Virus record (IMG/VR): IMGVR_UViG_3300021411_000125
Coordinates: 1 to 53,722 of that record
Direction: 5' to 3' (one strand)
Length of the DNA stretch: 53,722 bases
Source of the DNA: a virus
Lineage: Duplodnaviria > Caudoviricetes
Each line of letters opens with the position of its first letter. Position 1 is the stretch's first letter. A model generated the notes under the pieces. That model was not told the DNA's origin, made no database searches, and was given only the letters and a program-made list of their open reading frames with translations. The translations under genes and the position numbers were made by a program. Below are positions 16,101 to 39,039 of the stretch, in pieces.

Positions 16101-17069
16101 GTCGTAACGCCCGGGATGCTGGCGATGCAGCTGGCTGTTACGACGGGGTTTGTCGGGATTCAGGCCGCCTTCACCGCCGGTTTCGCGTTGCTGACGACCT
16201 CGGTGGCCCTGGCGTTCGTCAACCTCGCCGCGCTCGTTGTGACGCCCGGGATGCTGGCTATGGCGCTGGCGGTGACAACCGGATTCATCGGCATCCAGCT
16301 CGCCTTCACCACGGGGTTCGCGCTGCTGACTACTTCGATCGCGCTGGCCTTCGTCAACCTGGCCACGCTGGTTGTGACTCCTGGGATGCTGGCTATGCAA
16401 CAGGCCGTGACGACCGGGTTCATCGGCATCACCGCCGCCATGACCGCCGGAATGGCAGCGCTCGCAGCGGCAGTTACCGCCGGACAGCAGCCGATCATCG
16501 ACGCCTTTACCGCCATGTCTGACGCGGTATTGCAGGTCGCCCAACAGCTGATCGACGCCATGACCACCGTTGGCACCAACATGATGCAGTCACTCGCCAA
16601 CGCGATCCTCGCCGGTGAGTCGACTGTGGTCAACGCAATCGCTCAGGTGATAGCGGCGGCCATCGCGGCGGCTACTTCGATGCTCGGTATTGCCTCGCCT
16701 TCGAAGGTCTCCGGCGGCTGGGGCGACAACACCATCGCCGGCTTCGCCAACCAGGTGCTTGCGGGAAAGCAGACCGTGGTCAGCGCCATGCAGGACACCT
16801 TCGGTGCGGCGGTCGATGCCGGTCAGAAGGTGATGAGCAGCGCGACGTTCGCCGGCCCGTCACTCGACTCGAACTGGATGGCCTCGGCGTCGGGTGCGCT
16901 CACGGCTAGCAACGCAGGCATCGGAGACAGCACTGGCGGTGGCGGCGGCAACTTCACTGTCAACAACACGATCAACGCCGCGAACGGAAACGCCTCCGCC
17001 AAGCAGCTCGCCGACCAGGTGGTATTCCAGACGAAGTACTCGCGCAGGGGTGTCCACAGTGGGAGGTAG
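13113..17069 (+). CDS. Tape measure protein
   Basis: 1318 aa, Ala/Gly-rich; RVSVKVLPD start, periodic W/F repeats, LGIASPSKV near the C-terminus. Confidence 0.95.
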   Translation: MSSPGGQEVARVSVKVLPDTAGFAQKLKGDLQKINEQVVVEVNFDIDVAGLITALEALKLPKVTVPVDFETVRDAKIEVSADTTTAKTEVDKTVAEINAKKASVKVEADTAAFSKIKLEALMSNVTLKAKMDLDTTSFLAQVETAKLAAERISTIRAKFDVDRSALDRVGSVITSITNTVQGGLTSAMSGVSSIGSSIADNWSKISSTVGSVATGVLTIGAYAAAGVGIVDVLAAAWGLVSTAVLAVPAAVALIGAPIAAVMLGMDGIKKAAKTLEPAFKSLKAAVSDTFAKQLVPAFNTLKAVMPTVQTGMVGIASALSTMAVNLAKFLASAQGTSLLATTFDNVKAALLGISPGINGIVEGFLRLTATKSAFDALVQVINTVGTGFSDMVNELSRTDTLTAAFKGLGDVVSSVAQGFLDLMKNGVTAFSTMAPGLDSFVQSVTSFFNRFDWKKIGADIGGAFKGIGDAIKGVPQSTIDGIAKGFASLNQTMNSAGVQAFIQDVISLIPAALSLVNDLATALGSLELADAAVQNFLQGVNDSITNWSTTTDAAIQAWAQSTHDTIANWSTGLDTSINTGLQAVHDAIINWSTTTDATIQAWVQSTHDAIATWSDGLDASINGGLQSINDAITNWSTTTEATIQAWVQSTHDSIANWSTGLDTSINTGLTAVNAAIVNWSTTTDAVIQAWAQSTHDKIAAWSQGLDADIQGGLQSSHDSIAAWATDTDKVIQDWAQSTHDKIAAWAQGVLTDIQSGLSGLPGQIESLFGQTGPAAAKGLSGTSTAVGTEMKVVNAAFTTPLDSLPGDVGTSMTGVDTAITAPLAPVAGQVGSSMAGISGAVTSGLAPIPGLFVTAFTGLGVSVTAGMLAIQQSVNTGFVGIQAAFTAGFALLTTSAALSFVNLAALVVTPGMLAMQLAVTTGFVGIQAAFTAGFALLTTSVALSFVSLAALVVTPGMLAMQLAVNTGFVGIQAAFTAGFALLTTNAALAFVNLAALVVTPGMLAMQLAVTTGFVGIQAAFTAGFALLTTSVALAFVNLAALVVTPGMLAMALAVTTGFIGIQLAFTTGFALLTTSIALAFVNLATLVVTPGMLAMQQAVTTGFIGITAAMTAGMAALAAAVTAGQQPIIDAFTAMSDAVLQVAQQLIDAMTTVGTNMMQSLANAILAGESTVVNAIAQVIAAAIAAATSMLGIASPSKVSGGWGDNTIAGFANQVLAGKQTVVSAMQDTFGAAVDAGQKVMSSATFAGPSLDSNWMASASGALTASNAGIGDSTGGGGGNFTVNNTINAANGNASAKQLADQVVFQTKYSRRGVHSGR
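14748..15360 (+). repeat. 132-bp (44-aa) Trp-containing coding tandem repeat in the tape measure
   Basis: AACTGGTCGAC (NWST) recurs at 14748, 14880, 15012 and 15144. Confidence 0.9.
15702..16440 (+). repeat. 135-bp (45-aa) hydrophobic coding tandem repeat in the tape measure
   Basis: PGMLAM unit recurs at 15840, 15975, 16110, 16245 and 16380. Confidence 0.9.
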
Positions 17070-22200: not shown

Positions 22201-23907
22201 ATGACGCAGCCGGTAGCGGGGTCTGACGAGCGCGCGATTGCCGCTATGGGCAATCAGATCGCCGAGCAGCAGCGTCAGATCGACTTGATCAACATGGGGC
22301 AGAACCAAAGCTCCCTGGGATTTAGCTCGATCGAGAATGGCTCGTTGGTGATCTACGATGCCGACGGAAACGTGCGGAACGTGATCGGCAAGCAGGACGA
22401 CGGCTCCTACGTTGGTGGCGCTAGCCCGATCGCGCTCGACCCGCCGGAGATCCCGAACCCGCCGACGGTCACGCCGGGCTTCGGCACGCTGAAGGTAGCC
22501 AGCAACGGCAGCACCGACCCACCGTGGCCGCGATCATTCTCGCACGTCAACGTGTACCTGAGTTCGGGTACCGGTATCGGAGACGACCCGATCACCGAAG
22601 GCATCATCGTCGGCACGATCATCGGCACCACGGACTCGGCCTTCGTCATCGCCGGACTACTGCCGAAGCCGTACCGGGTCTGGCTGACCAGCGTCGGAAT
22701 CGATACCGCCGAGTCAGAAGCTTCCGTAGCCGTGACAGCTACCCCCACGATGGTTGTCGGTCAGGACATCCTCGACGGGGCAATTTCTGAGCTCAAGTTA
22801 GCTGACGACGCGGTGACCGCCGCAAAGCTTGCCGCCAGCTCGGTCGGGACTATTCAGATCCAGGGCGAGTCGATCGACGTCACAAAGCTGGCCGACGGTT
22901 CTGTGACTGGTGAGAAGATCGTCGCCGAAGCCATCGGGGTCGGGCACCTCGCGGCTGCTTCGGTCACCGCCGTGGCGCTCGCGGCCAACGCGGTACAGGC
23001 CAACAACATCGCGGCCGATCAGATCCAAGCGCATCACATGGCGGTTGGGTCGGTCACCGCCGAAGCGATCCTGGCGTTGAGCATCCAGGCCGACAAGCTG
23101 GCCGCTAACTCGATCACAGCGGGAAAGATCGCGGCCGGCGCCATCACCGCTGACAAGCTGCAAGCCGACATCATCATCGCCAACGCCACCTTCGAGACCG
23201 GCTCGAGTGGCCGGCGAGTAGTGATCTCGGGTCCAGGCAACGAGGTGCGGTTCTTCCCGCAGCTCAACGAGAACGCCTACGGGCGCATCTACTCCTACGT
23301 CAGCGACACCTACCCCGATGACGTCAACATTGAGTTCCGGGCGATCGATTCCGATGAGGTGAACGTTCAGCCACGCCTCGTGTTGACCCCCGACACGATC
23401 TTCGCGGGTCTTACCGACAGAGGCGACGACACCCTCAATCGCGGTGGCTACATGCAGATGGAAGAGTCGCTCGCAGCCTTCGGCACCAAGAACGCCACTG
23501 GCGGCGTTGAGCAGGGCATCTTCTGTGCCGCTGACGACGGCATAAAGATGCGAGGGTTCTTCCCCAACCACAAGGAAGATCCCACCGACGCACTGTTCGT
23601 AGCCGGCTACACGTTCACCAACACGTCTTCTACCGGCTACTGGACTAACCTCGGATTAGGCATGCGGCAAGCGCTGATTCGTCCTTTTATCACATTAGTG
23701 GTTACCGGTATTGATCAGGCGGACAGCGCTTCCAACAACTTGTTGTCAGTCCGGAATTATATATCAATGACTACGCCGTCAGCTATACGTTCCACTTTCG
23801 GACACACTACGGCAACATCGCTCCAACCGAATAAGGTGTGTTCCATGACCTGGATGGTAATTTCCGTCGGAATTGCGCTTTCCGATGCCGCGCCGGGAAC
23901 TTCGTGA
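22201..23907 (+). CDS. Tail tip/fibre protein
   Basis: N-terminal coiled coil, FN3-like segment, serial (A/S)xxITAxKL/I decamer repeats, divergent C-terminus. Confidence 0.75.
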   Translation: MTQPVAGSDERAIAAMGNQIAEQQRQIDLINMGQNQSSLGFSSIENGSLVIYDADGNVRNVIGKQDDGSYVGGASPIALDPPEIPNPPTVTPGFGTLKVASNGSTDPPWPRSFSHVNVYLSSGTGIGDDPITEGIIVGTIIGTTDSAFVIAGLLPKPYRVWLTSVGIDTAESEASVAVTATPTMVVGQDILDGAISELKLADDAVTAAKLAASSVGTIQIQGESIDVTKLADGSVTGEKIVAEAIGVGHLAAASVTAVALAANAVQANNIAADQIQAHHMAVGSVTAEAILALSIQADKLAANSITAGKIAAGAITADKLQADIIIANATFETGSSGRRVVISGPGNEVRFFPQLNENAYGRIYSYVSDTYPDDVNIEFRAIDSDEVNVQPRLVLTPDTIFAGLTDRGDDTLNRGGYMQMEESLAAFGTKNATGGVEQGIFCAADDGIKMRGFFPNHKEDPTDALFVAGYTFTNTSSTGYWTNLGLGMRQALIRPFITLVVTGIDQADSASNNLLSVRNYISMTTPSAIRSTFGHTTATSLQPNKVCSMTWMVISVGIALSDAAPGTS

Positions 23908-24644
23908 TGGCCGACGACATCTTCATTCACCATGCCGAGATGTCTCTCGTGGGCGGGGAGCCGCATTACGTAGTCGCGGTCCAGGAGGGGGAACTCTACG
24001 GTGATGATATTCCGGAGGGCGCGGTTGCACTTACTTGCCACCTGTTACCGGCCGATATCTTCGAGTCTCGCGCCGCCGAGTACGGCATCGATCCCGAGAC
24101 CCCCGGCGGCTGGGATGACATCCTCCACATAGTGTTCGCGCCGGTCCAGGACTCCCGGACGATCTCGGAGCAACTGGCGGACCCGGACCACCTCTACAAC
24201 GCACCGACCACCGAGCATGCCCGCAAGGCGAAGCTACTTCAGGTTCGCAAGGCGATGGGTGCCCGGAAGCTGCGTGGCGTACTGGGGGTCAGTGAACATC
24301 GACTGTTGATCAACGAGGCTACTCGGATCGAAGAGTCCGACGCCGAAGATCCGATCGAGTTCATCAAGCGCACGGCCCCGATGAGCCACGAACACATCAG
24401 GGTTAAGCAGGAGTACGTCCGACGGACCAGGATCACCTCCAAAGCACGTCGCCTCGGACTAGACCCCAACCGCGCCTACACGCCGGAAGAGTTGGAACAG
24501 CACGAGAAGCGTCGGGCGATGAAGAAGGAGCCGCAGCGCGAGTCAGCTGACAAGTTGGCGATCAGGCTGCTTGGAGCACCGATGGACGACGTTCGTGGCG
24601 ACCGGCTGCCGCCTCGGTTCGGCTCACCGTCCAAGTACCTGTGA
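23907..24644 (+). CDS. Hypothetical protein
   Basis: ATG 23907 via TGATG overlap; typical codon usage; RAAEYGID motif. Confidence 0.7.
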   Translation: MADDIFIHHAEMSLVGGEPHYVVAVQEGELYGDDIPEGAVALTCHLLPADIFESRAAEYGIDPETPGGWDDILHIVFAPVQDSRTISEQLADPDHLYNAPTTEHARKAKLLQVRKAMGARKLRGVLGVSEHRLLINEATRIEESDAEDPIEFIKRTAPMSHEHIRVKQEYVRRTRITSKARRLGLDPNRAYTPEELEQHEKRRAMKKEPQRESADKLAIRLLGAPMDDVRGDRLPPRFGSPSKYL

Positions 24645-24749
24645 AACACCGCTTCTGCCAGCCACCCACTGTAAAATGATGTTGGTCTCGCCCGCCGCGC
24701 CCGGTGTCGATTTCAGTTGGTGCCGTGGCATTGGTAGAGGGGGTGAGGT

Positions 24750-25007
24750 GTGCTCTCGAAGTCTGTCCTCAACGCGATCGCCTTGGTCATCACTGGCGTG
24801 TGGACCCTCTCGTTCCTGGCCCAATTCGTCCCCGCCTTCGACTACAAGCCTGACCCCCAGATCAACCTGATCTTCGGAACGCTCGTCGGTGGAGCCTTCG
24901 CCCTGCCGAAGCTGTTGGGCTCACGAAAAAGGGACGACGAGGACGACGGCGGCCGGCACCGGAAGCCGCCGGAGCCGGTTGAGGCCGAGAGCGGTGGTAG
25001 GTCATGA
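24750..25007 (+). CDS. Two-TM membrane protein (holin-like)
   Basis: Two hydrophobic segments and a charged C-terminal tail. Confidence 0.65.
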   Translation: MLSKSVLNAIALVITGVWTLSFLAQFVPAFDYKPDPQINLIFGTLVGGAFALPKLLGSRKRDDEDDGGRHRKPPEPVEAESGGRS

Positions 25008-25348
25008 ACGTACACCGGAGGCGCTGGTACTGGCCCGCGTTCGAGATCCGCCGCACCGTTCTAGGTATCGTCGTGATCGGTTTGATGGGATACTCCTTCT
25101 GGCAGTCGCATGAGGTCACGGCGTGCCAGAAAAACTTCAACGTCACGTTCAATCAGGGTCTCAAGGAGCGCAGCGACGCCGCCAGCACCGAGCGCCAGGC
25201 CCAGCGGGAGATGCTCGACGCGATACTCGATCCGGCCGGCACTGTCGCGTCACGGTCGGCGGCTCTAGTCGCCTGGCGAACGGCTCTGGACGAAGCGGAC
25301 CGCAAGCGCGACGCCAACCCCCTGCCAGAGGATCCACAATGCGACTGA
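25004..25348 (+). CDS. Single-TM membrane protein
   Basis: N-terminal TM, helical ectodomain ending NPLP...C; ATGA overlap. Confidence 0.7.
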   Translation: MNVHRRRWYWPAFEIRRTVLGIVVIGLMGYSFWQSHEVTACQKNFNVTFNQGLKERSDAASTERQAQREMLDAILDPAGTVASRSAALVAWRTALDEADRKRDANPLPEDPQCD

Positions 25349-26139
25349 AGATCAAAGGACACCTTCAGCGTCTCGGCAGCTCCGTACCGCCTGCGGCGAC
25401 CATCGGTATTTCGATCATCGTCGCTACCATCATCTTGAGTACCACCGCCGCTCAGTCTGACTCGAAGGCCGACGTCGCCACGGCCAAAGCGGTCAGCATC
25501 TCTACTTCGCTGAGTCAGCTGTGCCACGCCGGTAACGACCTCGCCGCTCTGTTGCAGTCCGCGCGTACGGTCGATGGGTTGCCACTGTGCCCCACGGCCG
25601 AGGCTATCAAGATCAACCCAACGGCCGCGCCGGTGCAGCTGGTTAGTGACGACCACATCGTTTCGTTGATCCGCGCTGAGCTCGCTCGGACCCCCGTTAC
25701 GGGATCTACCGCTCCGACGTTATCGCAGGTCATCGACGCAGTGCGCGCCGTCATGAAAGAGAATCCCGTACTCTTCAAGGGTGAAAAGGGTGACCCGGGC
25801 GACGAGGCGTCAACCTCGGAAATCGCTCAGGTCGTCGCGTCGTACTTTCGGGCCAACGCGGAACAGTTCCGGGGTCCGGCGGGGAAGGACGGTAGGGATG
25901 GCAAGGACGGCGTAGCGGGTAAGGATGGAGTGAACGGCTCCAACGGATCGAATGGTTCGAACGGTACTTACGAACCGCAGCCAACCGTGACGCAGACCGT
26001 TACCCCCGATCCCGTACCCGACCAAGGCGATAGTGACACCACACCCCCAACTGTTACCCAAACCGAGACCCAGCAGAACACCGAGAACTCCACGCGACAA
26101 CGTCAGCGCGGCGGCCTTGGTGGCTTACTGGGGAACTGA
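25339..26139 (+). CDS. Membrane-anchored collagen-like protein
   Basis: ATG 25339; TM, Cys pair, G-X-Y repeats (GPAGKDGRDGKDG), Pro/Thr-rich tail. Confidence 0.75.
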   Translation: MRLKIKGHLQRLGSSVPPAATIGISIIVATIILSTTAAQSDSKADVATAKAVSISTSLSQLCHAGNDLAALLQSARTVDGLPLCPTAEAIKINPTAAPVQLVSDDHIVSLIRAELARTPVTGSTAPTLSQVIDAVRAVMKENPVLFKGEKGDPGDEASTSEIAQVVASYFRANAEQFRGPAGKDGRDGKDGVAGKDGVNGSNGSNGSNGTYEPQPTVTQTVTPDPVPDQGDSDTTPPTVTQTETQQNTENSTRQRQRGGLGGLLGN

Positions 26140-26167
26140 ATCCCCGCCCACTGAGAGGTTGAACCCA

Positions 26168-27022
26168 ATGTTCCGCACCTTCCTGGTCGCGGTGCTGTCG
26201 GTCCTGGCGCTGAGCAGCGTCGGGGTCGGCGTCGCCGTTGCCGCAACTCCTCTACCCGCTGTGGCGGACTGTGTTCAGGTCCTTAACAGCGACGCCAAGT
26301 GTGATACCAACACGTCCGCGAAGATCGACGCCAACAAGTTCGCCGCTACCACCGAGGCCGAGTGCAACGCCCGACACGGTGACTGGCACTGGGTGAACGG
26401 CAGCTGCATCCTGGACCGTCACAACGGTGGTAATCACTCTGACTGCATCGGCGACCAGGCGCCCGGTATCCCCGGTTGCCAGCGCGGCGGCCCGGTCTAC
26501 CACGGCCCGATCTACAGCGACTGCAACGACGCGCGCACCCACGGCTACCGTGACATTCGCCGGGGTGACTCCCGCTACAACGACAGCTGGGACCGCAACC
26601 GCGACGGCATCGCCTGTGACGACGGTGACCTGGTCATCGTCAGCGACGACGGCGACTGCGTGACCTACGCGACCGCGCGCGACTCCATCCGCAACTACGG
26701 GCTGGCCTACAACCGGTACCGCACCCAGTACCACGGCGACTGGAACCGGTTGAACACCCACGATCGCAGCGACCTGAGCCGGCTCTACTCGCTCAACCAC
26801 CGCTACGTCTCCGAGGGTTGGAACTCATCGCGGCTGTCGAACCTGCGGACCGTCTGCAAGGACACCAGCCCGACGGTGACCATCGTGAACGAGGCGCCGC
26901 CGGCGACCATCATCAACCAGGCGCCGGCCGCGACGTACACCGCGCCGGCTCCGCAGGTCTCCACGGTTCCTTCGGGCGCCGCTGAGACCGGTGGATTCGA
27001 TGAGGCGCACTCCGCCGGCTGA
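26168..27022 (+). CDS. Secreted excalibur Ca-binding domain protein, candidate sortase substrate
   Basis: ATG 26168; signal peptide; YSDCNDAR..G...IRRGDSRY...WDRNRDGIACD excalibur motif; C-terminal QVSTVPSGAAETGG. Confidence 0.82.
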   Translation: MFRTFLVAVLSVLALSSVGVGVAVAATPLPAVADCVQVLNSDAKCDTNTSAKIDANKFAATTEAECNARHGDWHWVNGSCILDRHNGGNHSDCIGDQAPGIPGCQRGGPVYHGPIYSDCNDARTHGYRDIRRGDSRYNDSWDRNRDGIACDDGDLVIVSDDGDCVTYATARDSIRNYGLAYNRYRTQYHGDWNRLNTHDRSDLSRLYSLNHRYVSEGWNSSRLSNLRTVCKDTSPTVTIVNEAPPATIINQAPAATYTAPAPQVSTVPSGAAETGGFDEAHSAG

Positions 27023-27699
27023 TGTTCCGCATCCCGCTGGTCATCCTGTCCCTCGGCCTCGCGCTCGCTGGCTGTGGCATCGCTCCTGAAGCGGCCATAT
27101 CAGCGACCGAGGGACAGGACCAGCCTTACCTCAGCCAAGCGCCACCCAGTGTTGCCGCACAGCCGGTAGCGATCCAGATCCCGTCCATCGGCATCGACTC
27201 GACCCGATCGACCTGGATCCCCCTCGGCATCCAGGGCCGCAACGGCATCAAGGTCACCCCTCCCGGCAAGTCCGGCGAGATCGAAGTGCCGCCGCTGGAC
27301 GACCCGCTCAAGCTCGGCTGGTACTGCCCCGACGGTCTACCCAACTGTGGCGCGCCGGTACCCGGGCAGGACGGCCCGCTTGTCGTCGTCGGCCACATCA
27401 ACGGCAACGGCAAGCCGGGAATCTTCGCCAAGCTGAAACAGCTCAAAGTAGGCGACAAAATCTTCATTCGTCGCAAGGACGACCGCGCCGCTGCTTACCA
27501 CGTTACGAAGGTCTCGGAACCACTGAAGAGTGACTTCCCAACCGAGCAGGTCTACGGCGATACCCCAACGCCTACCCTGAGGTTGATCACCTGCGGAGGT
27601 GGCGGCAACGCTCTCGAGCGTATCCCCGGCGCCGGCTCCAGTTACAAGAACCAGACGATCGTCTTCGCTGAACAAGACACCCTGAGCAAGACCCCCTGA
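27022..27699 (+). CDS. Class F sortase (lipoprotein signal)
   Basis: Lipobox LAGC; IPSIGI, GWY, PG..G..VVVGH (His), F..L..L..GD, LRLITCGG (Cys). Confidence 0.9.
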   Translation: MFRIPLVILSLGLALAGCGIAPEAAISATEGQDQPYLSQAPPSVAAQPVAIQIPSIGIDSTRSTWIPLGIQGRNGIKVTPPGKSGEIEVPPLDDPLKLGWYCPDGLPNCGAPVPGQDGPLVVVGHINGNGKPGIFAKLKQLKVGDKIFIRRKDDRAAAYHVTKVSEPLKSDFPTEQVYGDTPTPTLRLITCGGGGNALERIPGAGSSYKNQTIVFAEQDTLSKTP

Positions 27700-27713
27700 C
27701 CAGGAGGCGCGGC

Positions 27714-28154
27714 GTGGAAGCGTGCTGCTTCAAGCACTGGGTCAAGCGGGCCCTCAAAAGCATCCGATCCGACGCCGCAGCGGAGCGCGCCGAGGCCCGG
27801 GTGAGACACCAAGAAGTCATGACCAAGCTGAGCCAGATCACTGAGAGGTTGGACATCATGGCAGCACGTGAGGAAGCGGCGTGGGAGAAGCATGCCGCCG
27901 ACGTGGCAGCGGTGAAGGCGGGCTGGGACACCCTGGTTGCCAGCAACGCCGCCAAGGACCAGCGGATCGCTGACCTCGAAGCCGCGCTCGAAGCGGCCGG
28001 TGGCGACGTACAGGCGCAGATTGACGCCGCGCTGGAAGTCGACAGCGAGGGCGACGCGGTGAAGGTCGAGTCCGCCAACGCCGCCCTGGAGAGTCTGCTG
28101 GCTCCGCCGGTGGAGCCGGGCAACGGCGGAGACAACATTCCTCCGCTGGGCTGA
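27714..28154 (+). CDS. Coiled-coil hypothetical protein (start uncertain)
   Basis: AGGAGG RBS; Ala/Glu-rich helical ORF. Confidence 0.65.
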   Translation: MEACCFKHWVKRALKSIRSDAAAERAEARVRHQEVMTKLSQITERLDIMAAREEAAWEKHAADVAAVKAGWDTLVASNAAKDQRIADLEAALEAAGGDVQAQIDAALEVDSEGDAVKVESANAALESLLAPPVEPGNGGDNIPPLG

Positions 28155-28163
28155 GTAGACCCG

Positions 28164-29231
28164 ATGCCTCGGCGTATGTTCCCGCGACGGAACGCCGAGG
28201 CATCGGCTCAGCCGGCGATGACTCTGCTACCGGCGCAAACACCGATCTTCGATGAGATGATCGAGGGTGTGAAGGTCACCGCTGAAGACGTTCCGTTCGG
28301 ACTCAACGCTGACCTGATGCCGGCTGAGGAGCAGCACAACCACGGCGAGCACGGTTTCTACGCCACGCTCACCGACGCGACTGGCCGCAGCATGATCAAG
28401 TCGCCGAACTACTCGAGCCGTGGCGGCAAGACGGTTCGACTCCTGATTGTGCACACCGCCGAGGGCGCCCGGACCGTTGAGTCACTCGGCTCGTGGTTCT
28501 CTTCTCCGTCGCGGCAGGTCTCTTCGCACGCCGGCATCGACGACAAGCGAATTGAGACCTACGTCCCGTACGACCAGGCCGCCTGGACCTGCCGCGCCGC
28601 CAACTCGATCTCAGACAACGTCGAGTTGTGCGGCTTCGCGGCCTGGACGCGCGAGCAGTGGCTGAACGACCACCCGCAGATGCTCGCACTGACCGCCCAG
28701 TGGCTCCGTGAGCGCGCGGTCGCTCGAGGCATCCCGTTGCGCAAGCTGACCCCCGAGCAGGTCGCGGCTGGGCAGTCAGGCGTCTGCGCGCACGTGGACT
28801 GGACGATCGGTATGAAGGACGGCACGCATACCGACTGCGGCACCGAATTCCCGTGGGACCACGTGATGAGCCTGGCCACCGCTTCCGCCCCCGCGCCCGT
28901 AGAGGAACCCTCGATGGCCGTCGAACGCTACGAGTTGCCAGCCGGCGACAACATGGAAGAGACGTTGATCGTGCCGGTGTTCAACGCCACCGACCGCGCC
29001 GAGCTCTGGATGGTCACTGGTTGGCAGGACGCGATCGTGCACGCGATGTACTTCGTCCGTGACCGGGGACCGGACCTTGATCCGAAGGTAGAGAACTGGG
29101 GCGGCACCGGTGAATGGACGTTGGTACGCGACGACCGACCCGGCTTCGACCTCGGCCAGGGCTGCACGTCGATCGCTGTCATGTACTCCTCTCCCCGCCC
29201 AATACATTGCTTGATCAGGTACCCGTCATGA
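28164..29231 (+). CDS. Endolysin, N-acetylmuramoyl-L-alanine amidase (Amidase_2-like)
   Basis: LIVHTAEG, VSSH, AW....N..S..VELCG, H.D and HTDCG..FPW zinc-amidase motifs; upstream of the holin. Confidence 0.9.
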   Translation: MPRRMFPRRNAEASAQPAMTLLPAQTPIFDEMIEGVKVTAEDVPFGLNADLMPAEEQHNHGEHGFYATLTDATGRSMIKSPNYSSRGGKTVRLLIVHTAEGARTVESLGSWFSSPSRQVSSHAGIDDKRIETYVPYDQAAWTCRAANSISDNVELCGFAAWTREQWLNDHPQMLALTAQWLRERAVARGIPLRKLTPEQVAAGQSGVCAHVDWTIGMKDGTHTDCGTEFPWDHVMSLATASAPAPVEEPSMAVERYELPAGDNMEETLIVPVFNATDRAELWMVTGWQDAIVHAMYFVRDRGPDLDPKVENWGGTGEWTLVRDDRPGFDLGQGCTSIAVMYSSPRPIHCLIRYPS

Positions 29232-29299
29232 GCGCACGTCACGCGAAGCCAGAGCCGGCCGCCGAGCCGGATGAGCAACACCTCACAACTGGAGACACC

Positions 29300-29668
29300 A
29301 TGAAGATCTTCGGTAGGGAACCCGCACTCTGGCTGGCCGCGATCGCCGCCGTCGTGTCGCTGGGCTCGCAGTTCATCTGGCACCTTTCCGACACCCAACA
29401 GTCGGTTATCAACGCGGTGGCGCTGGCGCTGGTCGGCCTGCTCACCACCGCTTCGGTCGATCAGGAGAAGCTCGCGCCCGCGATCCTCGGCCTGATCTCG
29501 GCGCTGGTCGCGCTCGGCATGGGCTTCGGCTGGCATCTCGACCCAACGGATCAGTCAGTGATCATGTCTGCCGCCGCCGGCATCGTGGCGATGTTCGTTC
29601 GCACCCAGGTCACGGTCGACGCTCCGGCTCACTACGCGGACGACGAGACGGCAGAAGCAGCTGCATGA
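29300..29668 (+). CDS. Holin (4 TM); alternative upstream ATG at 29228
   Basis: GGAG RBS; MKIFGREPA...RTQVT pattern; four hydrophobic helices; follows the lysin. Confidence 0.8.
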   Translation: MKIFGREPALWLAAIAAVVSLGSQFIWHLSDTQQSVINAVALALVGLLTTASVDQEKLAPAILGLISALVALGMGFGWHLDPTDQSVIMSAAAGIVAMFVRTQVTVDAPAHYADDETAEAAA

Positions 29669-29832
29669 TCATCCTCGGAGTTCTGTTGCTCCTGGTTCAC
29701 GCCTTGCTCCTGCCGCTCTACGTGTTCTACGTCCTCGGCTGGATCTTCGTCGTGGTCGGCCTGCTCCTGTTTTTGCTCGGAGTCGTCGGGCCCACTGACC
29801 GCTATGTCGGCGGCCGAAGGTACTGGTACTGA
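29665..29832 (+). CDS. Small membrane protein (DUF6131-like), missing from the ORF track
   Basis: Read by hand: MIILGVLLLLVH...LLGVVGPTDRYVGGRRYWY; ATGA/TGATG coupling on both sides. Confidence 0.75.
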   Translation: MIILGVLLLLVHALLLPLYVFYVLGWIFVVVGLLLFLLGVVGPTDRYVGGRRYWY

Positions 29833-29975
29833 TGACCGCCCCCACTCCGCCCAAGGACCCGAGGGGCTCCGTACCGGGTACCGCTTCGCGCCGCTCGGTG
29901 GGTAGGGCGACGCCGAAGGTTAAGCCGGCACAGCGGGGCGGGGGCGCCGCTCCGAAGCCCCCCGTGCAGGAATAG
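29832..29975 (+). CDS. Small Pro/Lys/Arg-rich hypothetical protein
   Basis: 47 aa, TGATG-coupled; fills the gap up to the next RBS. Confidence 0.45.
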   Translation: MTAPTPPKDPRGSVPGTASRRSVGRATPKVKPAQRGGGAAPKPPVQE

Positions 29976-29985
29976 GAGACTCGCG

Positions 29986-30798
29986 GTGACCCACGTGTTC
30001 GGATACGCCCGAGACGCGGAGACTGGTGTCCCGCTTCTCGGGCGTGAGGTCACCGCGAGTATCTATCCGCGCGGCGCCGCCAGCTTCCCGCCAATCTCCG
30101 GTGGCATTGACACGCTCATTACCGGCGCCGACGGCCGTACCGACGGTTACTGGGAACTGGTGCTGCCGTCCACGGCCGGCTCCGGCGCGGTGATGCGGAT
30201 CCGTGAATGGCTCAACCGAACGCTGTATGTCGATATCCCGGAGTTGGGCAGCGACCCAACACCGATCGACGCCGAGACGATCCAGGTCAACCCAGATGAC
30301 GGCAACCCGCTACCGCCGGAGCAGGCGAGCCTGTTTCTGACGCGCGCGGAACTCGGCCAGGTCTCCGGTGTCGCTCAACTCGACTCCGGCGGAAAGATCC
30401 CGCTGTCACAGCTGCCGGTCATCGAGGGTACCGACGGACAGCTGTTGCTTTCCCGCGTTGCTGGTGAAGATCTCGGCGGGCATCGCGTGGTGACGTTGTC
30501 GGAGTCGAACACGATCGTCTACGCGAGCAACGACAACTCAGGTCAGGTCGAAGCACCCCTTTGGCTGACGCTTGGCGCCATCGGAGTCGGCGCGACGGAC
30601 TCGGTACTCGCCTACGGGCCGATCACCGAACCGTCTTGGAGCTGGAACCCCGGACCGGTTTATCTCGGTACCGACGGCCTCCTGACCCAGGACTCACCCG
30701 AGCCCCCCGCGCTGTTCAACGTTCAGGTCGGGTTCGCTACCAGCTCGACCCGGGTCGTCTTCGACCGCCGAGTCTCACTAGCCCTCATTCAGGAGTAG
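29986..30798 (+). CDS. Putative virion fibre-associated protein
   Basis: AGGAG RBS; GVAQLD..GK.P..QLP fibre motif; C-terminal AGE.LGGHRVV...W.W..GPVYLG..G.LTQ domain. Confidence 0.65.
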   Translation: MTHVFGYARDAETGVPLLGREVTASIYPRGAASFPPISGGIDTLITGADGRTDGYWELVLPSTAGSGAVMRIREWLNRTLYVDIPELGSDPTPIDAETIQVNPDDGNPLPPEQASLFLTRAELGQVSGVAQLDSGGKIPLSQLPVIEGTDGQLLLSRVAGEDLGGHRVVTLSESNTIVYASNDNSGQVEAPLWLTLGAIGVGATDSVLAYGPITEPSWSWNPGPVYLGTDGLLTQDSPEPPALFNVQVGFATSSTRVVFDRRVSLALIQE

Positions 30799-30804
30799 AC
30801 CACC

Positions 30805-31305
30805 ATGGCCAAGTACTTGACCAACAGCTCAGGCACCGTCACCGAAGTAGCCACACTCGTTACCTCGGCCGGTGCTGGTGACTCCGGCAAGATCCCCTCG
30901 TTGGACGCCGCCGGGCATCTGGACACTTCGTTCATGCCGACTGGTATCGGCGCCGACACCGCCGCGATCACCGCCTCCGAGGCGCTGGCTGCCGGTGACC
31001 TAGTCAGCATCTGGAACTCGACCGGCGCCAAGGTCCGCAAGGCCGATGCCAGCACCGCCGGAAAGGAAGCGCACGGCTTCGTCCTCTCCTCGGTGTCCAG
31101 CTCCGGTACCGCGACCGTCTACTTCGAAGGCTCCAACACGGGAGTCACTTCCCTGACCCCGGGCGTGCAGTACCTGTCGACCACGCCGGGCATCGCATCC
31201 GCCACCGCGCCGTCCGGTTCGGGCAACGTCGTGCAGCGGGTCGGGTTCGCCACCGCCGCAGCCGCGCTGAACTTCGACGCCGGCACCCCGATCGTTCTCG
31301 CCTGA
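30805..31305 (+). CDS. Conserved phage structural protein (cement/DUF2190-like fold suspected)
   Basis: SAGA.D.GKIP.LD..G.LD, ASEALAAGDLV, G..YLSTTPG, VVQRVG; AGGAG RBS. Confidence 0.65.
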   Translation: MAKYLTNSSGTVTEVATLVTSAGAGDSGKIPSLDAAGHLDTSFMPTGIGADTAAITASEALAAGDLVSIWNSTGAKVRKADASTAGKEAHGFVLSSVSSSGTATVYFEGSNTGVTSLTPGVQYLSTTPGIASATAPSGSGNVVQRVGFATAAAALNFDAGTPIVLA

Positions 31306-33017
31306 TGGCAACCCGCCGGCCCCTCGCCGTGGTCAGCGGGGCTGTTTCTGAGGTCCCGTCCGGCGACACCGTCGACCCCGCCGCGTTGCCCACGTTTGTT
31401 GCGTCGATCAGCAACGACGAAGGCTCGATCACCATAGACAGCCTCGGCAGCGGGGCGTTCAACGTCAAGGTCGCGGCGGTCATCTTCTCCAACCTCACCT
31501 CGTTGCTCGCGGGGAAGCAGGACATTGACGCTGATCTCACCGACATCGCTGGGTTGTCAGCGACCGACGGTGACTTCCTGCGCCGGGTCTCCGGGCACTG
31601 GGCCAACATCACCACCGCCGCGCTGAAGACGGCACTAGCTCTTGCCAAAGCGGACGTCGGGTTAGGCAACGTCGACAACACCTCGAACGCGACCGAGCGC
31701 GCGGCGGCAGCGACGCTGACTAACAAGACACTCACCTCTCCGGCCATCACGACTCCGACTGGCATCGTCAAGGGCGACGTGGGTCTCGGCAACGTCGACA
31801 ACACCAGCAACGTCACTGAGCGCGCGGCGTCGGCGACCTTGACTAACAAGACGCTGACCAGTCCGGTGATCAACACTCCGACGGGCATCGTGGCCAGTGA
31901 CGTCGGTGCTCAGCCGGTTGACTCGGACTTGACTGCTTTCGCGGCGATCAGCCCGAGCAACGACGACATCGTGCAGCGCAAAGCCGGAGCTTGGATTAAC
32001 CGCACCGTCGCTCAGCTGGCTACTGATCTCGCGCTCGCCGCGACGTATCAGCCGCTGGACGCCGACCTCACCGACCTCGCGGGGCTGACCTACACCGACG
32101 GAGACTTCGTCCGCAGGGTGTCGGGCCACTTCGCCACCATCACTACGGCGGCACTGAAGACCGCGCTGAGCCTGACCGCGACCGACGTCGGCCTGGGTAA
32201 CGTCAATAACACCTCGAACGTCACCGAGCGAGCCGCCGCCGCGACGTTGACCAACAAGACGCTCACTTCACCGGTGATCAGTACTCCGACCGGAATCGTC
32301 AAAGGTGACGTCGGCCTAGGCAACGTCGACAACACCTCGAATACGACGGAGCGGGCAGCAGCTGCCACGCTGACCAACAAGACGCTGACTAGTCCGGTGA
32401 TCAACACCCCGACCGGTATCACCGCCAGCGACGTCGGAGCTCAGCCGGTTGACTCGGATTTGACGGCCTTCGCCGCGCTGACTCCGACCAACGACGACGT
32501 CGTGCAGCGCAAGGCTGGCGCCTGGGTTAACCGCACCATCGCTCAGCTGCTGACCGACCTTGGTCTGGCGGCGCTGTATCAGCCGCTCGCTAGCAAGCTG
32601 ACCGACATCGCGGCGCTGACCGCCACGTCGGGCAACATCGTCACCGGTAACGGCACCACGTGGACCTCAGCGGCTCCGGCGGTACCGGCATGGTCTACGA
32701 AGGTCGAGACGATTGCCGACTCCTCTTCGCTGACCGGCGACTCACTGTCGGGCGCGATCCAGGTCGGGGTGTGCACCGCACTCACGCAGGCGGCCACGGT
32801 CAACCCACCGAGCAACGGCTACGTCGGCGCCGTGTACCGCTACATCATCACCGCGTCCGGTGGCGCTCGAGTGGTTACACCATCCGGGTTCGCCGCATCG
32901 ACTGACAACGGTAGCGGCGCGGCGGTCAGCGTCCCGTCCGGCAAGACCATCTCGATCTTCTCTCAGTACATCGGATCGAGTGGTTGGTTGTACGGCGGCT
33001 ACGAGTTGCTGGTCTGA
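31305..33017 (+). CDS. Tail fibre protein with nested repeats
   Basis: Four DVGLGNV(D/N)NTS / TLTNKTLTSP units within a 177-aa duplication. Confidence 0.82.
   Translation: MATRRPLAVVSGAVSEVPSGDTVDPAALPTFVASISNDEGSITIDSLGSGAFNVKVAAVIFSNLTSLLAGKQDIDADLTDIAGLSATDGDFLRRVSGHWANITTAALKTALALAKADVGLGNVDNTSNATERAAAATLTNKTLTSPAITTPTGIVKGDVGLGNVDNTSNVTERAASATLTNKTLTSPVINTPTGIVASDVGAQPVDSDLTAFAAISPSNDDIVQRKAGAWINRTVAQLATDLALAATYQPLDADLTDLAGLTYTDGDFVRRVSGHFATITTAALKTALSLTATDVGLGNVNNTSNVTERAAAATLTNKTLTSPVISTPTGIVKGDVGLGNVDNTSNTTERAAAATLTNKTLTSPVINTPTGITASDVGAQPVDSDLTAFAALTPTNDDVVQRKAGAWVNRTIAQLLTDLGLAALYQPLASKLTDIAALTATSGNIVTGNGTTWTSAAPAVPAWSTKVETIADSSSLTGDSLSGAIQVGVCTALTQAATVNPPSNGYVGAVYRYIITASGGARVVTPSGFAASTDNGSGAAVSVPSGKTISIFSQYIGSSGWLYGGYELLV
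31518..32620 (+). repeat. 531-bp (177-aa) coding tandem duplication
   Basis: Unit starts at 31518 and 32049, with a partial unit at 32580. Confidence 0.85.
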
Positions 33018-33020
33018 CCG

Positions 33021-34667
33021 ATGGGATTCGTAGCGGATATCCTCGGCTTCGGCAACGCGGCGGGCCCCCATTTCGATTTCGACTACTCAACCGCGACCGG
33101 CGCCGGCATCACCAACCTCACGCAGGCACAGCTCGCATCGAGCGCTGGCGTCGCCAGCATCATCTATGCCTCGGCGGATGCTCAGTCGGTTGTGCTGCGC
33201 TCTGATGTGGACGTCGACCCGATCGCCGCCAACGGCTACCCCCGCTCGGAGTGGCGGGAGAAGGGCACCAACGGCACCACTGATCGGGCGTTCACCGACA
33301 CCACCGGCGACCACATGGTCGAAGTGTTGGTCCTGCCGATGCATCTGCCGCCGATCAAGCCCGCGTTCGTGGTGCTGCAAGAGCATGACAGCGCGCAGGA
33401 TCTCCTCGAAATCGTGGTACAGGGCCGCTCCGACTACGCGACCTCCGGCAAGCTCGAAGTCGCGCTGAAGGTCGCGGTCGGCGGGTCCAGCAGCAGCGCC
33501 GGCATCCCCCGGTTCATCGCCGACTACGGCACACTCGCCGAGCTGATCACCAAACCGAAGTGGCTGAACGCCAAGATCCGCACCGGCTTGATCAACGGGG
33601 GAGCGGCTGGGTGGTCCGCGTCCTGCGCCGGCGTCACGATCAACAGCTGGGACGCCGGCATCCCGACCAGGGACGCGTCGGTCAGCAACACCTGCTACTA
33701 CAAGACCGGCATGTACCTCCAGACCAAGTGGACCGGTTCAGGCACCGGTGGTCTGGAGACCGACCGCAACGAGTACGGCGAAGCGGCCTGGCGCAGCATC
33801 AAGGTCACCCACAACGGCGAGTCGCTTCCGTTCATCCCGGTCACCGGCTCACGCGCCGAAGACACCATCAGCAACGTGAGGTGGGGCGCCAAGGCCGAGG
33901 GCGTCAACTCCGCGACGCCGACCGTTCTGACCCTCACTCCGGCACTTCCGGCCAGCCTCGTCAAGGACGACATGGTCTACGTTGTTGCCCGCACCCGGAG
34001 GACATCTCCGTCTACCGGAGTTGTGTCTAGTCCCGCTATCGAGTCCGTATCCCCGACGTGGAACCGGCTCTTGACTAGCAGCGGCGGGGAGTTCGCCAGT
34101 GGCGCTTTTGGCACCGACTTGACCAGCCACTCGCAGCGGATGCGGATCTGGTGTCGGCCGTGGTTCTCCGGAATGGCCGCACCCGCCCTGACCTTTACAT
34201 CGGGGGTCCCCGAAGACATCATGTCCGCGCAGTGCTTTGCCATCTACGGCGGCAAGCTCGGAGCTGTCGCTGAAGTCGTTGACCAGGTCCCGGCGAACTT
34301 CAACTACGGCGCGAGCAGTACCACGATCCTCGGCCCCACCGCCGCGCTACCGGCTGATGCTGAAGCTGGTTCGCTCGCTCTTGCGCTGCTGGCCAACGAG
34401 TTCAACGTGACCAGCGGCGCGGCGACCACGGTCTCCGGAGACGGGTTGACCTGGGTCGAGGGTGGTGAAGGCATCGGGACCACCATCGCTTTCCAGGCAT
34501 GGGCCAACGACCACGCCATCGTGCCGGGAACTGCCGGTCAGGCCATCACCGCCAAGCAGTCCGCGAACACGGCGCACACCACGGGCAAGTCGGCGTCCGT
34601 GTTGATGACGCTGAAGCGGGCCAAGAAGCGCCGTCACCACAACCGAGTCCCCACTTCGACCGGATGA
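33021..34667 (+). CDS. Polysaccharide lyase family 7 (alginate lyase-like) domain protein, putative depolymerase
   Basis: YPRSEWRE, VVLQEHD and YYKTGMYLQ match the PL7 RxELRE / QIH / YFKAGxYxQ motifs in order; beta-rich C-terminal half. Confidence 0.75.
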   Translation: MGFVADILGFGNAAGPHFDFDYSTATGAGITNLTQAQLASSAGVASIIYASADAQSVVLRSDVDVDPIAANGYPRSEWREKGTNGTTDRAFTDTTGDHMVEVLVLPMHLPPIKPAFVVLQEHDSAQDLLEIVVQGRSDYATSGKLEVALKVAVGGSSSSAGIPRFIADYGTLAELITKPKWLNAKIRTGLINGGAAGWSASCAGVTINSWDAGIPTRDASVSNTCYYKTGMYLQTKWTGSGTGGLETDRNEYGEAAWRSIKVTHNGESLPFIPVTGSRAEDTISNVRWGAKAEGVNSATPTVLTLTPALPASLVKDDMVYVVARTRRTSPSTGVVSSPAIESVSPTWNRLLTSSGGEFASGAFGTDLTSHSQRMRIWCRPWFSGMAAPALTFTSGVPEDIMSAQCFAIYGGKLGAVAEVVDQVPANFNYGASSTTILGPTAALPADAEAGSLALALLANEFNVTSGAATTVSGDGLTWVEGGEGIGTTIAFQAWANDHAIVPGTAGQAITAKQSANTAHTTGKSASVLMTLKRAKKRRHHNRVPTSTG

Positions 34668-38864: not shown

Positions 38865-39039
38865 CCCCGAGACGGTCCAGGACATGAAGATCGAGATCCA
38901 GGAGCTGCGCCACGCTGTTCGATCACTATGTAGCGTCGTGGAAGACCTCGCGGACAACCCGATCGCGCACATCTACAACAAGATGCCGTCTCCCGGTAAC
39001 CGCGCCCGGACCATCGTGACGTTGCTGGATGAGCAATGA
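38851..39039 (+). CDS. Small hypothetical protein
   Basis: GGAG RBS; overlaps both neighbours. Confidence 0.6.
   Translation: MEAIDPETVQDMKIEIQELRHAVRSLCSVVEDLADNPIAHIYNKMPSPGNRARTIVTLLDEQ

Follow-up and report, generated by a model that had tools for sequence, protein, structure and literature searches.

The cargo and sortase genes

The DNA analysed here, which we call the window, is the 53,722-nucleotide stretch of IMG/VR record IMGVR_UViG_3300021411_000125 (Duplodnaviria; Caudoviricetes), and it represents a nearly whole siphovirus-type phage genome; the record is linear and estimated to be 93% complete. Our subject is a pair of adjacent genes at positions 26,168 to 27,699, one for a secreted Excalibur-domain protein, here called the cargo, and one for a sortase of class F type. 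A model reading only the letters and the translated open reading frames (ORFs) had proposed that the cargo is a candidate substrate of the sortase, although the membrane anchor that normally follows a sorting motif is missing; we refer to this as the original prediction. The features of the pair are as follows.

26168..27022 (stop included), plus strand: cargo gene, secreted Excalibur-domain protein of 284 residues (P0001), from ORF and translation
26168..26242, plus strand: predicted Sec signal peptide, residues 1-25 (A-V-A, then A26), by inspection of the translation
26513..26617, plus strand: Excalibur calcium-binding domain, residues 116-150, Pfam PF05901, profile positions 1-35 of 36
26654..26854, plus strand: conserved three-helix domain, residues 163-229, between the invariant Cys164 and Cys230, from AlphaFold2 and the alignment
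26969..26992, plus strand: putative sorting tag P268-S-G-A-A-E-T274-G275 of the class F 'GVDTG-type', from conservation and cellular class F neighbours
26993..27019, plus strand: short polar tail G-F-D-E-A-H-S-A-G where a membrane helix and basic tail would be usual, from the translation
27020..27024, plus strand: TGATG overlap of cargo stop (TGA, 27020-27022) and sortase start (ATG, 27022-27024)
27022..27699 (stop included), plus strand: sortase gene, class F-type, lipoprotein-anchored, 225 residues (P0002), from PF04203, NF033748 and fold
27064..27075, plus strand: lipobox L15-A16-G17-C18, from the translation
27394..27396, plus strand: codon of catalytic His125 (VVGH), invariant column in 29 aligned sortases
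27592..27594, plus strand: codon of catalytic Cys191 (LRLITCGG), invariant column in the same 29 sortases
27649..27651, plus strand: codon of Asn210, at the place of the catalytic Arg of other classes, from the alignment

The cargo begins with MFRTFLVAVLSVLALSSVGVGVAVAA, a Sec-type signal peptide as judged by inspection: the n-region MFR is followed by a hydrophobic window of 19 residues (Kyte-Doolittle mean 1.85) and an A-x-A site, and the signal is retained in those aligned relatives whose N-terminus is present. A longer cargo starting at 26033 was rejected, as it overlaps the upstream gene and the relatives begin with MFRT, MIKS or MRR. The Excalibur domain scores 32.8 bits against a cut-off of 22 (E 8.7e-8), and calcium binding is a prediction from the family. 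With this domain, the signal peptide and ten cysteines the protein is the secreted, Cys-rich Excalibur protein that had been described from the sequence. The three-helix domain is the only confident part of the AlphaFold2 model, with a predicted local distance difference test (pLDDT) of about 75-89 as compared to a mean of 54.1 for the whole cargo. A fold search with this domain (VIA-align) returned only generic helical bundles, with Z no higher than 5.4, and an Atlas search returned only Excalibur clusters, with scores below 0.8 and template modelling (TM) scores below 0.5.

Towards its end the cargo has a Pro-rich linker that leads to the terminal VPSGAAETGGFDEAHSAG, and the translation closes with ...QVSTVPSGAAETGGFDEAHSAG. 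The peptide bearing the tag is VPSGAAETGGFDE. Its residues 268-275 fit the class F pattern P-x-G-x-x-x-T-G and were scored as a member of P-x-G-G-[AV]-x-T-G. The original prediction saw here a generic TG-containing motif; T-G does end the tag, but the whole is better read, from the comparisons given below, as a class F 'GVDTG-type' signal. Sortase chemistry would place the cut between T274 and G275. Past T-G there are nine residues (GFDEAHSAG), all polar, without a hydrophobic stretch and without Arg or Lys; the original prediction had counted about eight polar residues. When the window was scanned for the tag pattern, the tag stood at a real gene end only in the cargo, and no second substrate was seen. 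A literature search gave no published description of this tag.

The sortase is recognised by Pfam (PF04203, E 6.9e-16), where its 58.6 bits exceed the cut-off of 26.6. Among the NCBIfam models class F fits best (NF033748, 127.3 bits, with class E as the runner-up at 24.5 bits), so the class that was first proposed leads by about 100 bits, although its score lies under the curated cut-off of 166. The AlphaFold2 model has a mean pLDDT of 79.7. A Foldseek search of it against the PDB gave 108 matches at E <= 0.001, of which the top ones, with a probability of 1.00 and E about 1e-7, are solved structures of class A, C, D and E sortases, and a search of PDB chains by sequence only gave no match. 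The His of VVGH, the Cys of LITC and the lipobox are all at the places first pointed out, and most of the phage clade, like several cellular relatives, has a lipobox of the form [AS]-[GS]-C or a near variant. The segment from Y208, Y-x-N-[QN]-T-I-V (here Y-K-N-Q-T-I-V), aligns with Y-x-[DA]-N-[VI]-I-V of cellular class F enzymes; replacement of the Arg by Asn is described for actinobacterial class F in PMC6998099. The predicted activity is that of a transpeptidase acting on a sorting motif. The closest group consists of 16 proteins at 46-83% identity, followed by cellular class F sortases at no more than 41%, the nearest of which carry the NCBI name class F. Several of the sortase relatives lie on contigs of the same length as those of cargo relatives.

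The phage clade has two insertions in the sortase that are absent from the cellular class F relatives. The first, residues 102-110 (27325-27351), reads C-P-D-G-L-P-N-C and holds a Cys pair (102/109) that may form a disulfide. The second, residues 192-205 (27595-27636), follows the catalytic Cys and reads G-G-G-N-A-L-E-R-I-P-G-A-G.

The short tail is conserved in the cargo family

At E <= 0.001 the cargo has 30 relatives in a word-based protein search. The two weakest (E > 1e-4) were omitted and the query was aligned with the remaining 28, giving 29 rows. Every row ends with P-x-G-x-x-x-[T/G]-G-[GD] followed by only 2-12 more residues, and none of the 28 relatives has a hydrophobic tail segment. 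P268 and G275 are invariant, G270 is found in at least 90% of the rows and T274 in 26 of them, within a Pro-rich linker that is variable. The tails themselves are conserved within subgroups, as DEAHxxx, STLIH/STQL or SxAFTLAHNRAV.

A profile search of a library clustered at 50% identity gave 169 proteins at E <= 0.001, most of which match in the Excalibur part only, and the tails were surveyed in the 50 representatives whose match covers the C-terminal part of the profile. No hydrophobic segment follows the motif in 45 of them. The other five have one, accompanied by basic residues in P0163, P0173 and P0192 and by fewer than two basic residues in P0166 and P0187. The family thus holds tailed and tail-less forms, and the tail-less form dominates. 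That relatives carry the same motif together with a full anchor is a good reason to take the motif for a genuine sorting signal. Homologues with a transmembrane tail throughout, which the original prediction named as the sign of a truncated copy, were not what we found (0 of 28 aligned relatives and 5 of 50 representatives are tailed). A truncated copy was rejected on these two surveys, and by the same comparisons the missing anchor is a conserved property.

No relatives of the cargo were found in IMG/VR, and among 185,579 species genomes there were two matches to the family, both confined to the Excalibur domain.

The sortase as probable partner of the cargo

Ten related loci were recovered from metagenome contigs (our loci are numbered L001 and so on). 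In two of them the contig ends 9 and 171 bases past the cargo match; in all eight that could be evaluated the sortase lies directly downstream of the cargo, and this arrangement persists down to 31% cargo identity. L001, L003 and L004 also retain the ORF of 146 residues and the endolysin gene that follow the pair in the window, and L001 and L003 the holin gene. Together with the coupling of the two genes by TGATG, which is as first described, this co-occurrence supports the view that cargo and sortase form a dedicated sortase-substrate pair.

A complex of sortase residues 40-225 with cargo residues 225-284, predicted from our own alignments, had a median score of 0.47 (runs 0.47, 0.46 and 0.55), and the best of three controls had 0.00. 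Of 80 solved complexes 58 reached the mark that the pair passes, as did 2 of 110 mismatched pairs; passes at 0.60 or lower, however, belong to only 7 of the 80 solved complexes and to both of the passing mismatches. The runs share at least 72% of their contacts, and the pLDDT of the partner is about 50 (at least 48), so that its fold is uncertain. Solved sortase-peptide complexes exist, and the pass may for that reason reflect likeness only. The prediction gives the pairing weak backing. We find it quite probable that the two proteins are enzyme and substrate, with cleavage at the tag.

Partners of cellular class F sortases

For the 34 cellular sortases that match best, the gene lying upstream was read; two of these sortases are at contig starts, which leaves 32 loci. 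All 32 upstream neighbours end with P-x-G-[GA]-[AV]-x-T-G (for example PRGGAQTG, PVGAVHTG and PEGAPQTG). In 29 a spacer, then a membrane helix and an Arg-rich tail come after the motif, and three are tail-less; without L031, a tail-less locus from an unpublished genome, the tailed count is 29 of 31. The NF058571 'GVDTG sorting domain' profile matches these neighbours, with 33 bits against a cut-off of 29 at L027 and with scores below the cut-off at L044 and L016. A class F-like match at E <= 1e-10 is present in 187 of 401 sampled Actinomycetes genomes, a tally that includes eight genomes flagged as unpublished; the best match reaches only E 8e-28, and no member of the phage group of sortases was found in these genomes.

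One of the tail-less cellular pairs could be seen in some detail. At L048 (9349-11222, minus strand; genome G316) a protein of 428 residues, whose gene overlaps the start of a membrane-anchored class F sortase, stops eight residues past P-Q-G-G-V-D-T-G. The surroundings are sugar-metabolism and transporter-like ORFs, with no phage genes.

Viral class F loci

A scan of IMG/VR with the sortase alignment gave 31 loci at 30-45% identity. Exact duplicates (L072, L073, L080), one locus at a contig edge (L079) and two without a pattern match (L074, L078) were excluded, which leaves 25 distinct loci. The partner is tail-less in 24 of them, ending 1-25 residues past the motif, mostly 2-6, and a start with a signal-peptide-like hydrophobic region is present in 21 of the 24. 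L071 is the single locus with a full tail. Tails were counted by a strict pattern rule, which agrees with a reading by eye of the cellular loci. By eye, the excluded L074 ends ...IDTGLGGTA and is tail-less, and L078 is on a low-GC contig and has a hydrophobic end. Tailed partners in 29 of 32 cellular loci as compared to 1 of 25 viral ones gives a Fisher p of 9e-12, which has to be read with the reservation that the loci are not independent events. A PHROG scan of 53 flanking ORFs placed an endolysin within about 3 kb in 10 of the 25 viral loci and at least one lysis or virion gene in 16, with none at L071.

The relationships were examined in a quick maximum-likelihood tree of 77 sortase domains, built from class F-like rows only, with no outgroup of another class; L031, L072, L073 and the loci with too short a domain were omitted. 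The sortases of the cargo family and 22 viral ones fall on one side of a weak split, with a value of 76 in the Shimodaira-Hasegawa-like approximate likelihood ratio test (SH-aLRT). The cellular side has four viral rows at its base, and L071 falls within the cellular rows. A fair statement, as far as these sequences go, is that a single old viral lineage of class F type uses partners without a tail, and that cells too have isolated pairs of this kind. By these counts, the anchor-less format is what is normal in the viral branch of class F.

L071-L073 are identical to each other and are the only viral loci with a helix-and-basic tail. The two flanking ORFs scanned there hold no phage hallmark, and these loci may be cellular DNA in a prophage call.

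In nine viral loci (L053, L056, L058, L059, L060, L065, L066, L075 and L077) cargos that are otherwise unrelated have an acidic stretch near the tag, either an Excalibur-like D-x-D-x-D-G-x-x-C-E or long Asp/Glu runs within about 40 residues of it. This hints at acidic, calcium-binding cargo as a common theme of the viral loci.

Genomic setting of the pair

The first part of the window encodes, by PHROG matches, the small and large terminase, portal, protease, scaffold, major head protein and adaptor, followed by the tail terminator, the major tail protein and the tape measure (13113-17069). Minor tail and fibre proteins extend to about 23900, and then a run of small exported or membrane proteins leads to the cargo and sortase. 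Downstream of the pair there is one ORF of 146 residues and then the amidase-type endolysin and the holin, which bears out the proximity to lysin and holin first noticed. G+C is 61-66% across the whole window, which we read as the genome of a phage from soil with a high-GC host. The closest cultured relatives of the terminase are actinophages, at no more than 46% identity, and among 50,697 records of cultured phages there was no match to 25000-30000 (megablast) or to the sortase (tblastn). The immediate neighbours are as follows.

25339..26139, plus strand: collagen-repeat protein with an N-terminal membrane-anchor-like segment, directly upstream of the cargo; hydrophobic window at residues 14-32
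27714..28154, plus strand: helical protein of 146 residues, between sortase and endolysin; same place in L001, L003 and L004
28164..29231, plus strand: endolysin, N-acetylmuramoyl-L-alanine amidase (amidase_2); PF01510 E 7e-8, PHROG 12609 E 1e-26
29228..29668, plus strand: holin with three hydrophobic segments; PHROG 9752 E 7e-25, residues 62-177 of a long ORF

The collagen repeat matches PF01391 at E 6.8e-5, below the cut-off, and PHROG tail-fibre families; its start was chosen by us, at an ATG overlapping the stop codon of the ORF before it. The protein of 146 residues matched no Pfam family at the cut-off and no PHROG. The holin may start either at 29228, where its ATGA overlaps the stop of the lysin, or at 29300.

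The collagen-repeat gene, the endolysin gene and the three genes between them are separated, in order, by 28, -1, 14 and 9 bases. Within 23500-30500 no promoter-like site was seen, and terminator-like sites occur at chance level only; expression of the pair in the manner of a moron was rejected on these two observations. The tyrosine and serine integrase families have no match in the 93%-complete record. Lysogenic conversion, which had been offered as a purpose of the pair, finds no support in this phage, given this lack of an integrase match, the position of the pair in a late operon and the lack of a promoter-like site.

Just upstream of the pair three genes look targeted to the envelope (24750-26139), and all three are retained in L001. 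The first (24750-25007) encodes 85 residues with two hydrophobic segments, the second (25004-25348) 114 residues with a hydrophobic N-terminus, and the third is the collagen-repeat gene.

Tail-fibre-like genes resume past the lysis cassette, with PHROG 4368 at 29986-30798 and 30805-31305 and tail fibre or collar families at 31305-33017. They are followed at 33021-34667 by a protein of 548 residues that matches Pfam Alginate_lyase2 (E 2e-13), possibly a depolymerase of capsule or exopolysaccharide. With tail genes on both sides (29986-34667 being the later part), the lysis genes are embedded among tail genes. A second ORF resembling the terminase large subunit is found at 39036-40586 (PHROG 38, E 1e-49), far from the terminase at 489-2276; PHROG 38 is also found near the sortase module at L060 (8767-10344) and L065 (8937-10385, minus strand).

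Proposed mechanism and alternatives

Sortases recognise a motif, cleave after its Thr, hold the substrate as a thioester on the active Cys and release it to an amine. With this chemistry, the reading that we prefer, at a probability of about 0.6, is that the phage encodes a dedicated sortase-substrate module which is expressed with the late (tail and lysis) genes and fixes the cargo to the host envelope. For its steps we infer export, cut site, acceptor and biological purpose. The cargo would be exported by Sec and lose its signal peptide, and its ten cysteines would probably form disulfides outside the cell. The sortase would be lipid-anchored on the outer face of the membrane, recognise P-S-G-A-A-E-T-G, cut between T274 and G275, free a peptide of ten residues and keep the cargo bound to Cys191 as a thioester. 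The thioester would then be resolved by an amine in the envelope of the host, the likeliest being that of a peptidoglycan stem peptide or of the lipid II precursor; for peptidoglycan as the acceptor we would put the odds slightly short of even. The infected cell would thus have a calcium-binding protein bound covalently to its wall when it is about to lyse. Timing late in infection is suggested by the position of the pair in the late operon, with tight gaps and no promoter-like site. Since the tag comes without membrane helix and basic tail, the cargo would not be held in the membrane, and its capture would rely on co-expression and on an enzyme that is itself bound to the membrane. Decoration of virions, another purpose that had been suggested, is unlikely because both proteins carry export signals and virions assemble in the cytoplasm.

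Several observations weigh against this reading. G takes the place of T at the cut position in 3 of the 29 aligned members of the cargo family. The sortase scores below the curated cut-off of NF033748, and the support from complex prediction is low. NF058571 does not match the cargo, either with the whole protein at E <= 0.1 or with the last 100 residues at E <= 1, which is to be expected of a profile when two thirds of the signal are absent. Three changes on the sortase tree suffice for the tail state, so that the contrast between viral and cellular loci is not made of independent cases. Use of this tag by class F enzymes is a prediction from comparison. In staphylococci, Schneewind and colleagues reportedly found that a substrate without the hydrophobic or the charged part of the tail is secreted and its anchoring to the wall abolished; efficient anchoring of a tail-less cargo is on that account not a given. 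The only characterised class F enzyme, that of Cutibacterium acnes, uses LPXTG according to PMC8225981, and mutation of four class F genes at once had no phenotype in Actinoplanes (PMC13251363).

The main rival agrees that the pair is enzyme and substrate, but has a product that is not anchored to the wall. Either water would resolve the thioester, so that the cargo is only trimmed, activated or released, or the amine would belong to another protein, for which the collagen-repeat neighbour, a host surface protein or another cargo molecule can be imagined. The absence of a membrane-retention signal suits a soluble product, and the subgroup tails (DEAHxxx, STLIH, AFTLAHNRAV) are conserved beyond the need of a leaving group. 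The region past the catalytic Cys affects selectivity in class A sortases, and one of the clade-specific insertions lies directly there. The pair is also surrounded by exported and membrane proteins. However, no candidate acceptor has a recognisable feature, no other ORF in the window ends with the tag, and the tag is the same as in cellular partners that have the full wall-sorting architecture. We regard this rival as unlikely on balance, though it is the one that survives best.

It is improbable that the phage sortase mainly re-sorts, or competes for, host proteins of the GVDTG type, with a cargo that is independent and resembles a tagged protein to no effect. The sortases and tagged proteins of class F are indeed common in Actinomycetes (187 of 401 genomes at E <= 1e-10), and a phage enzyme of the same specificity could take host substrates. 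But cargo and sortase are adjacent wherever this could be evaluated (8 of 8), the tag is conserved in all 29 aligned cargos, and the unrelated cargos at other viral loci keep it beside a sortase.

A decaying remnant of a host operon, in which the anchor was lost by truncation and the pair no longer functions, would account for a tag that lacks two of the three parts of the canonical signal, and the five hydrophobic-tailed representatives of 50 leave room for a tail-less form derived from a tailed one. Yet both ORFs are intact, the catalytic residues are invariant, and the tail-less state is seen in 45 of 50 family representatives and 24 of 25 distinct viral loci and holds down to about 30% identity with a tag that is visibly constrained, which makes a remnant very improbable. 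A programmed frameshift at TGATG that fuses cargo to sortase, with the hydrophobic N-terminus of the sortase as the missing anchor, is scarcely credible and was rejected: this N-terminus does start right past the short tail, with a tag spacing that resembles the canonical signal, but a stop in the sortase frame at 27001-27003 leaves only six codons in which to shift, these show no slippery heptamer, in L005, L007, L009 and L010 the tblastn matches of cargo and sortase are about 20-190 bases apart instead of overlapping, and a search for longer relatives of 498-2000 residues found none, which is weak evidence.

Returning to envelope fixation as the preferred reading, what the wall-bound cargo does is conjecture. 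Given calcium binding and lysis genes close by, it may act on the wall or influence how other phages, or progeny, adsorb to debris. A wider proposal, which we hold only as a speculation with the odds clearly against it, is that anchor-less sorting is a distinct mode of sortase action typical of viruses: a lineage of soil actinophages would export soluble acidic or calcium-binding cargo and, with a class F sortase of its own, staple it to amines of peptidoglycan precursors or of the host wall shortly before lysis, thereby either capping cross-linking sites in aid of the endolysin or coating wall and debris against adsorption by progeny and rival phages, and the helix and tail would have been shed since a leftover embedded in the membrane harms a cell whose lysis is timed by the holin.

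Relation to known systems and significance

The nearest known system is the cellular class F sortase (NF033748) with its upstream GVDTG protein (NF058571). The phage pair is like it in branch, in the His/Cys/Asn residues, in the upstream position of the substrate and in the tag. The partners differ in that 29 of the 32 cellular ones have the membrane helix and Arg-rich tail, whereas the phage cargo and its close relatives stop 2-12 polar residues past T-G-[GD]; the phage enzyme differs in scoring below the NF033748 cut-off, in the clade insertions and in being borne by a virus beside lysis genes. The SrtF of Cutibacterium (Propionibacterium) acnes (Di Girolamo et al. 2019), the only class F sortase characterised according to PMC8225981 and PMC13251363, shares the class, but these sources present it as a housekeeping enzyme for LPXTG with canonical tails, neither virus-borne nor devoted to a single cargo.

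A sortase B has been described in huge gut phages, with the gene of a signal-peptide-bearing substrate directly upstream, and display of phage proteins on the host wall was proposed in that work, a preprint of October 2026 (bioRxiv 10.64898/2026.10.24.761521). Those phages infect Bacillota and exceed 200 kb, and their substrates have the motif with a hydrophobic segment and a positive tail; the present phage has a sortase of class F type and a genome of 54 kb, is of actinophage type and lacks the tail. Class E sortases recognise LAXTG (Streptomyces SrtE1/E2 and the chaplins, in PMC8225981), and A-A-E-T-G of the cargo resembles LAETG. However, the class E model gives only 24.5 bits on the phage sortase, and the tag conserves the upstream P, the G and the final T-G but not an L at position 1. 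Small actinobacterial Excalibur proteins with LAETG or LPXTG anchors are known to us from Atlas cluster names, as leads only. We found no published description of a class F-type sortase with an anchor-less partner in actinophages of ordinary size among the papers that could be searched.

Judged by these comparisons, the module is a phage-carried class F sortase system, of whose sorting signal only the motif is left. No other sortase class has a natural role as poorly understood as that of class F. Reviews have one characterised enzyme, and removal of the full set of four class F genes from Actinoplanes had no phenotype. One sortase with one partner makes a minimal, self-contained pair for questions about the tag, the cut site and the acceptor of class F. 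If the pair works as read here, the three-part sorting signal of the textbooks is dispensable in a natural and conserved system, which bears on how sortases find their substrates and on ligation tools based on sortases. If true, phage biology would also gain a case where the envelope of the host is modified covalently by a transpeptidase that the virus itself encodes, beside its lysis genes.

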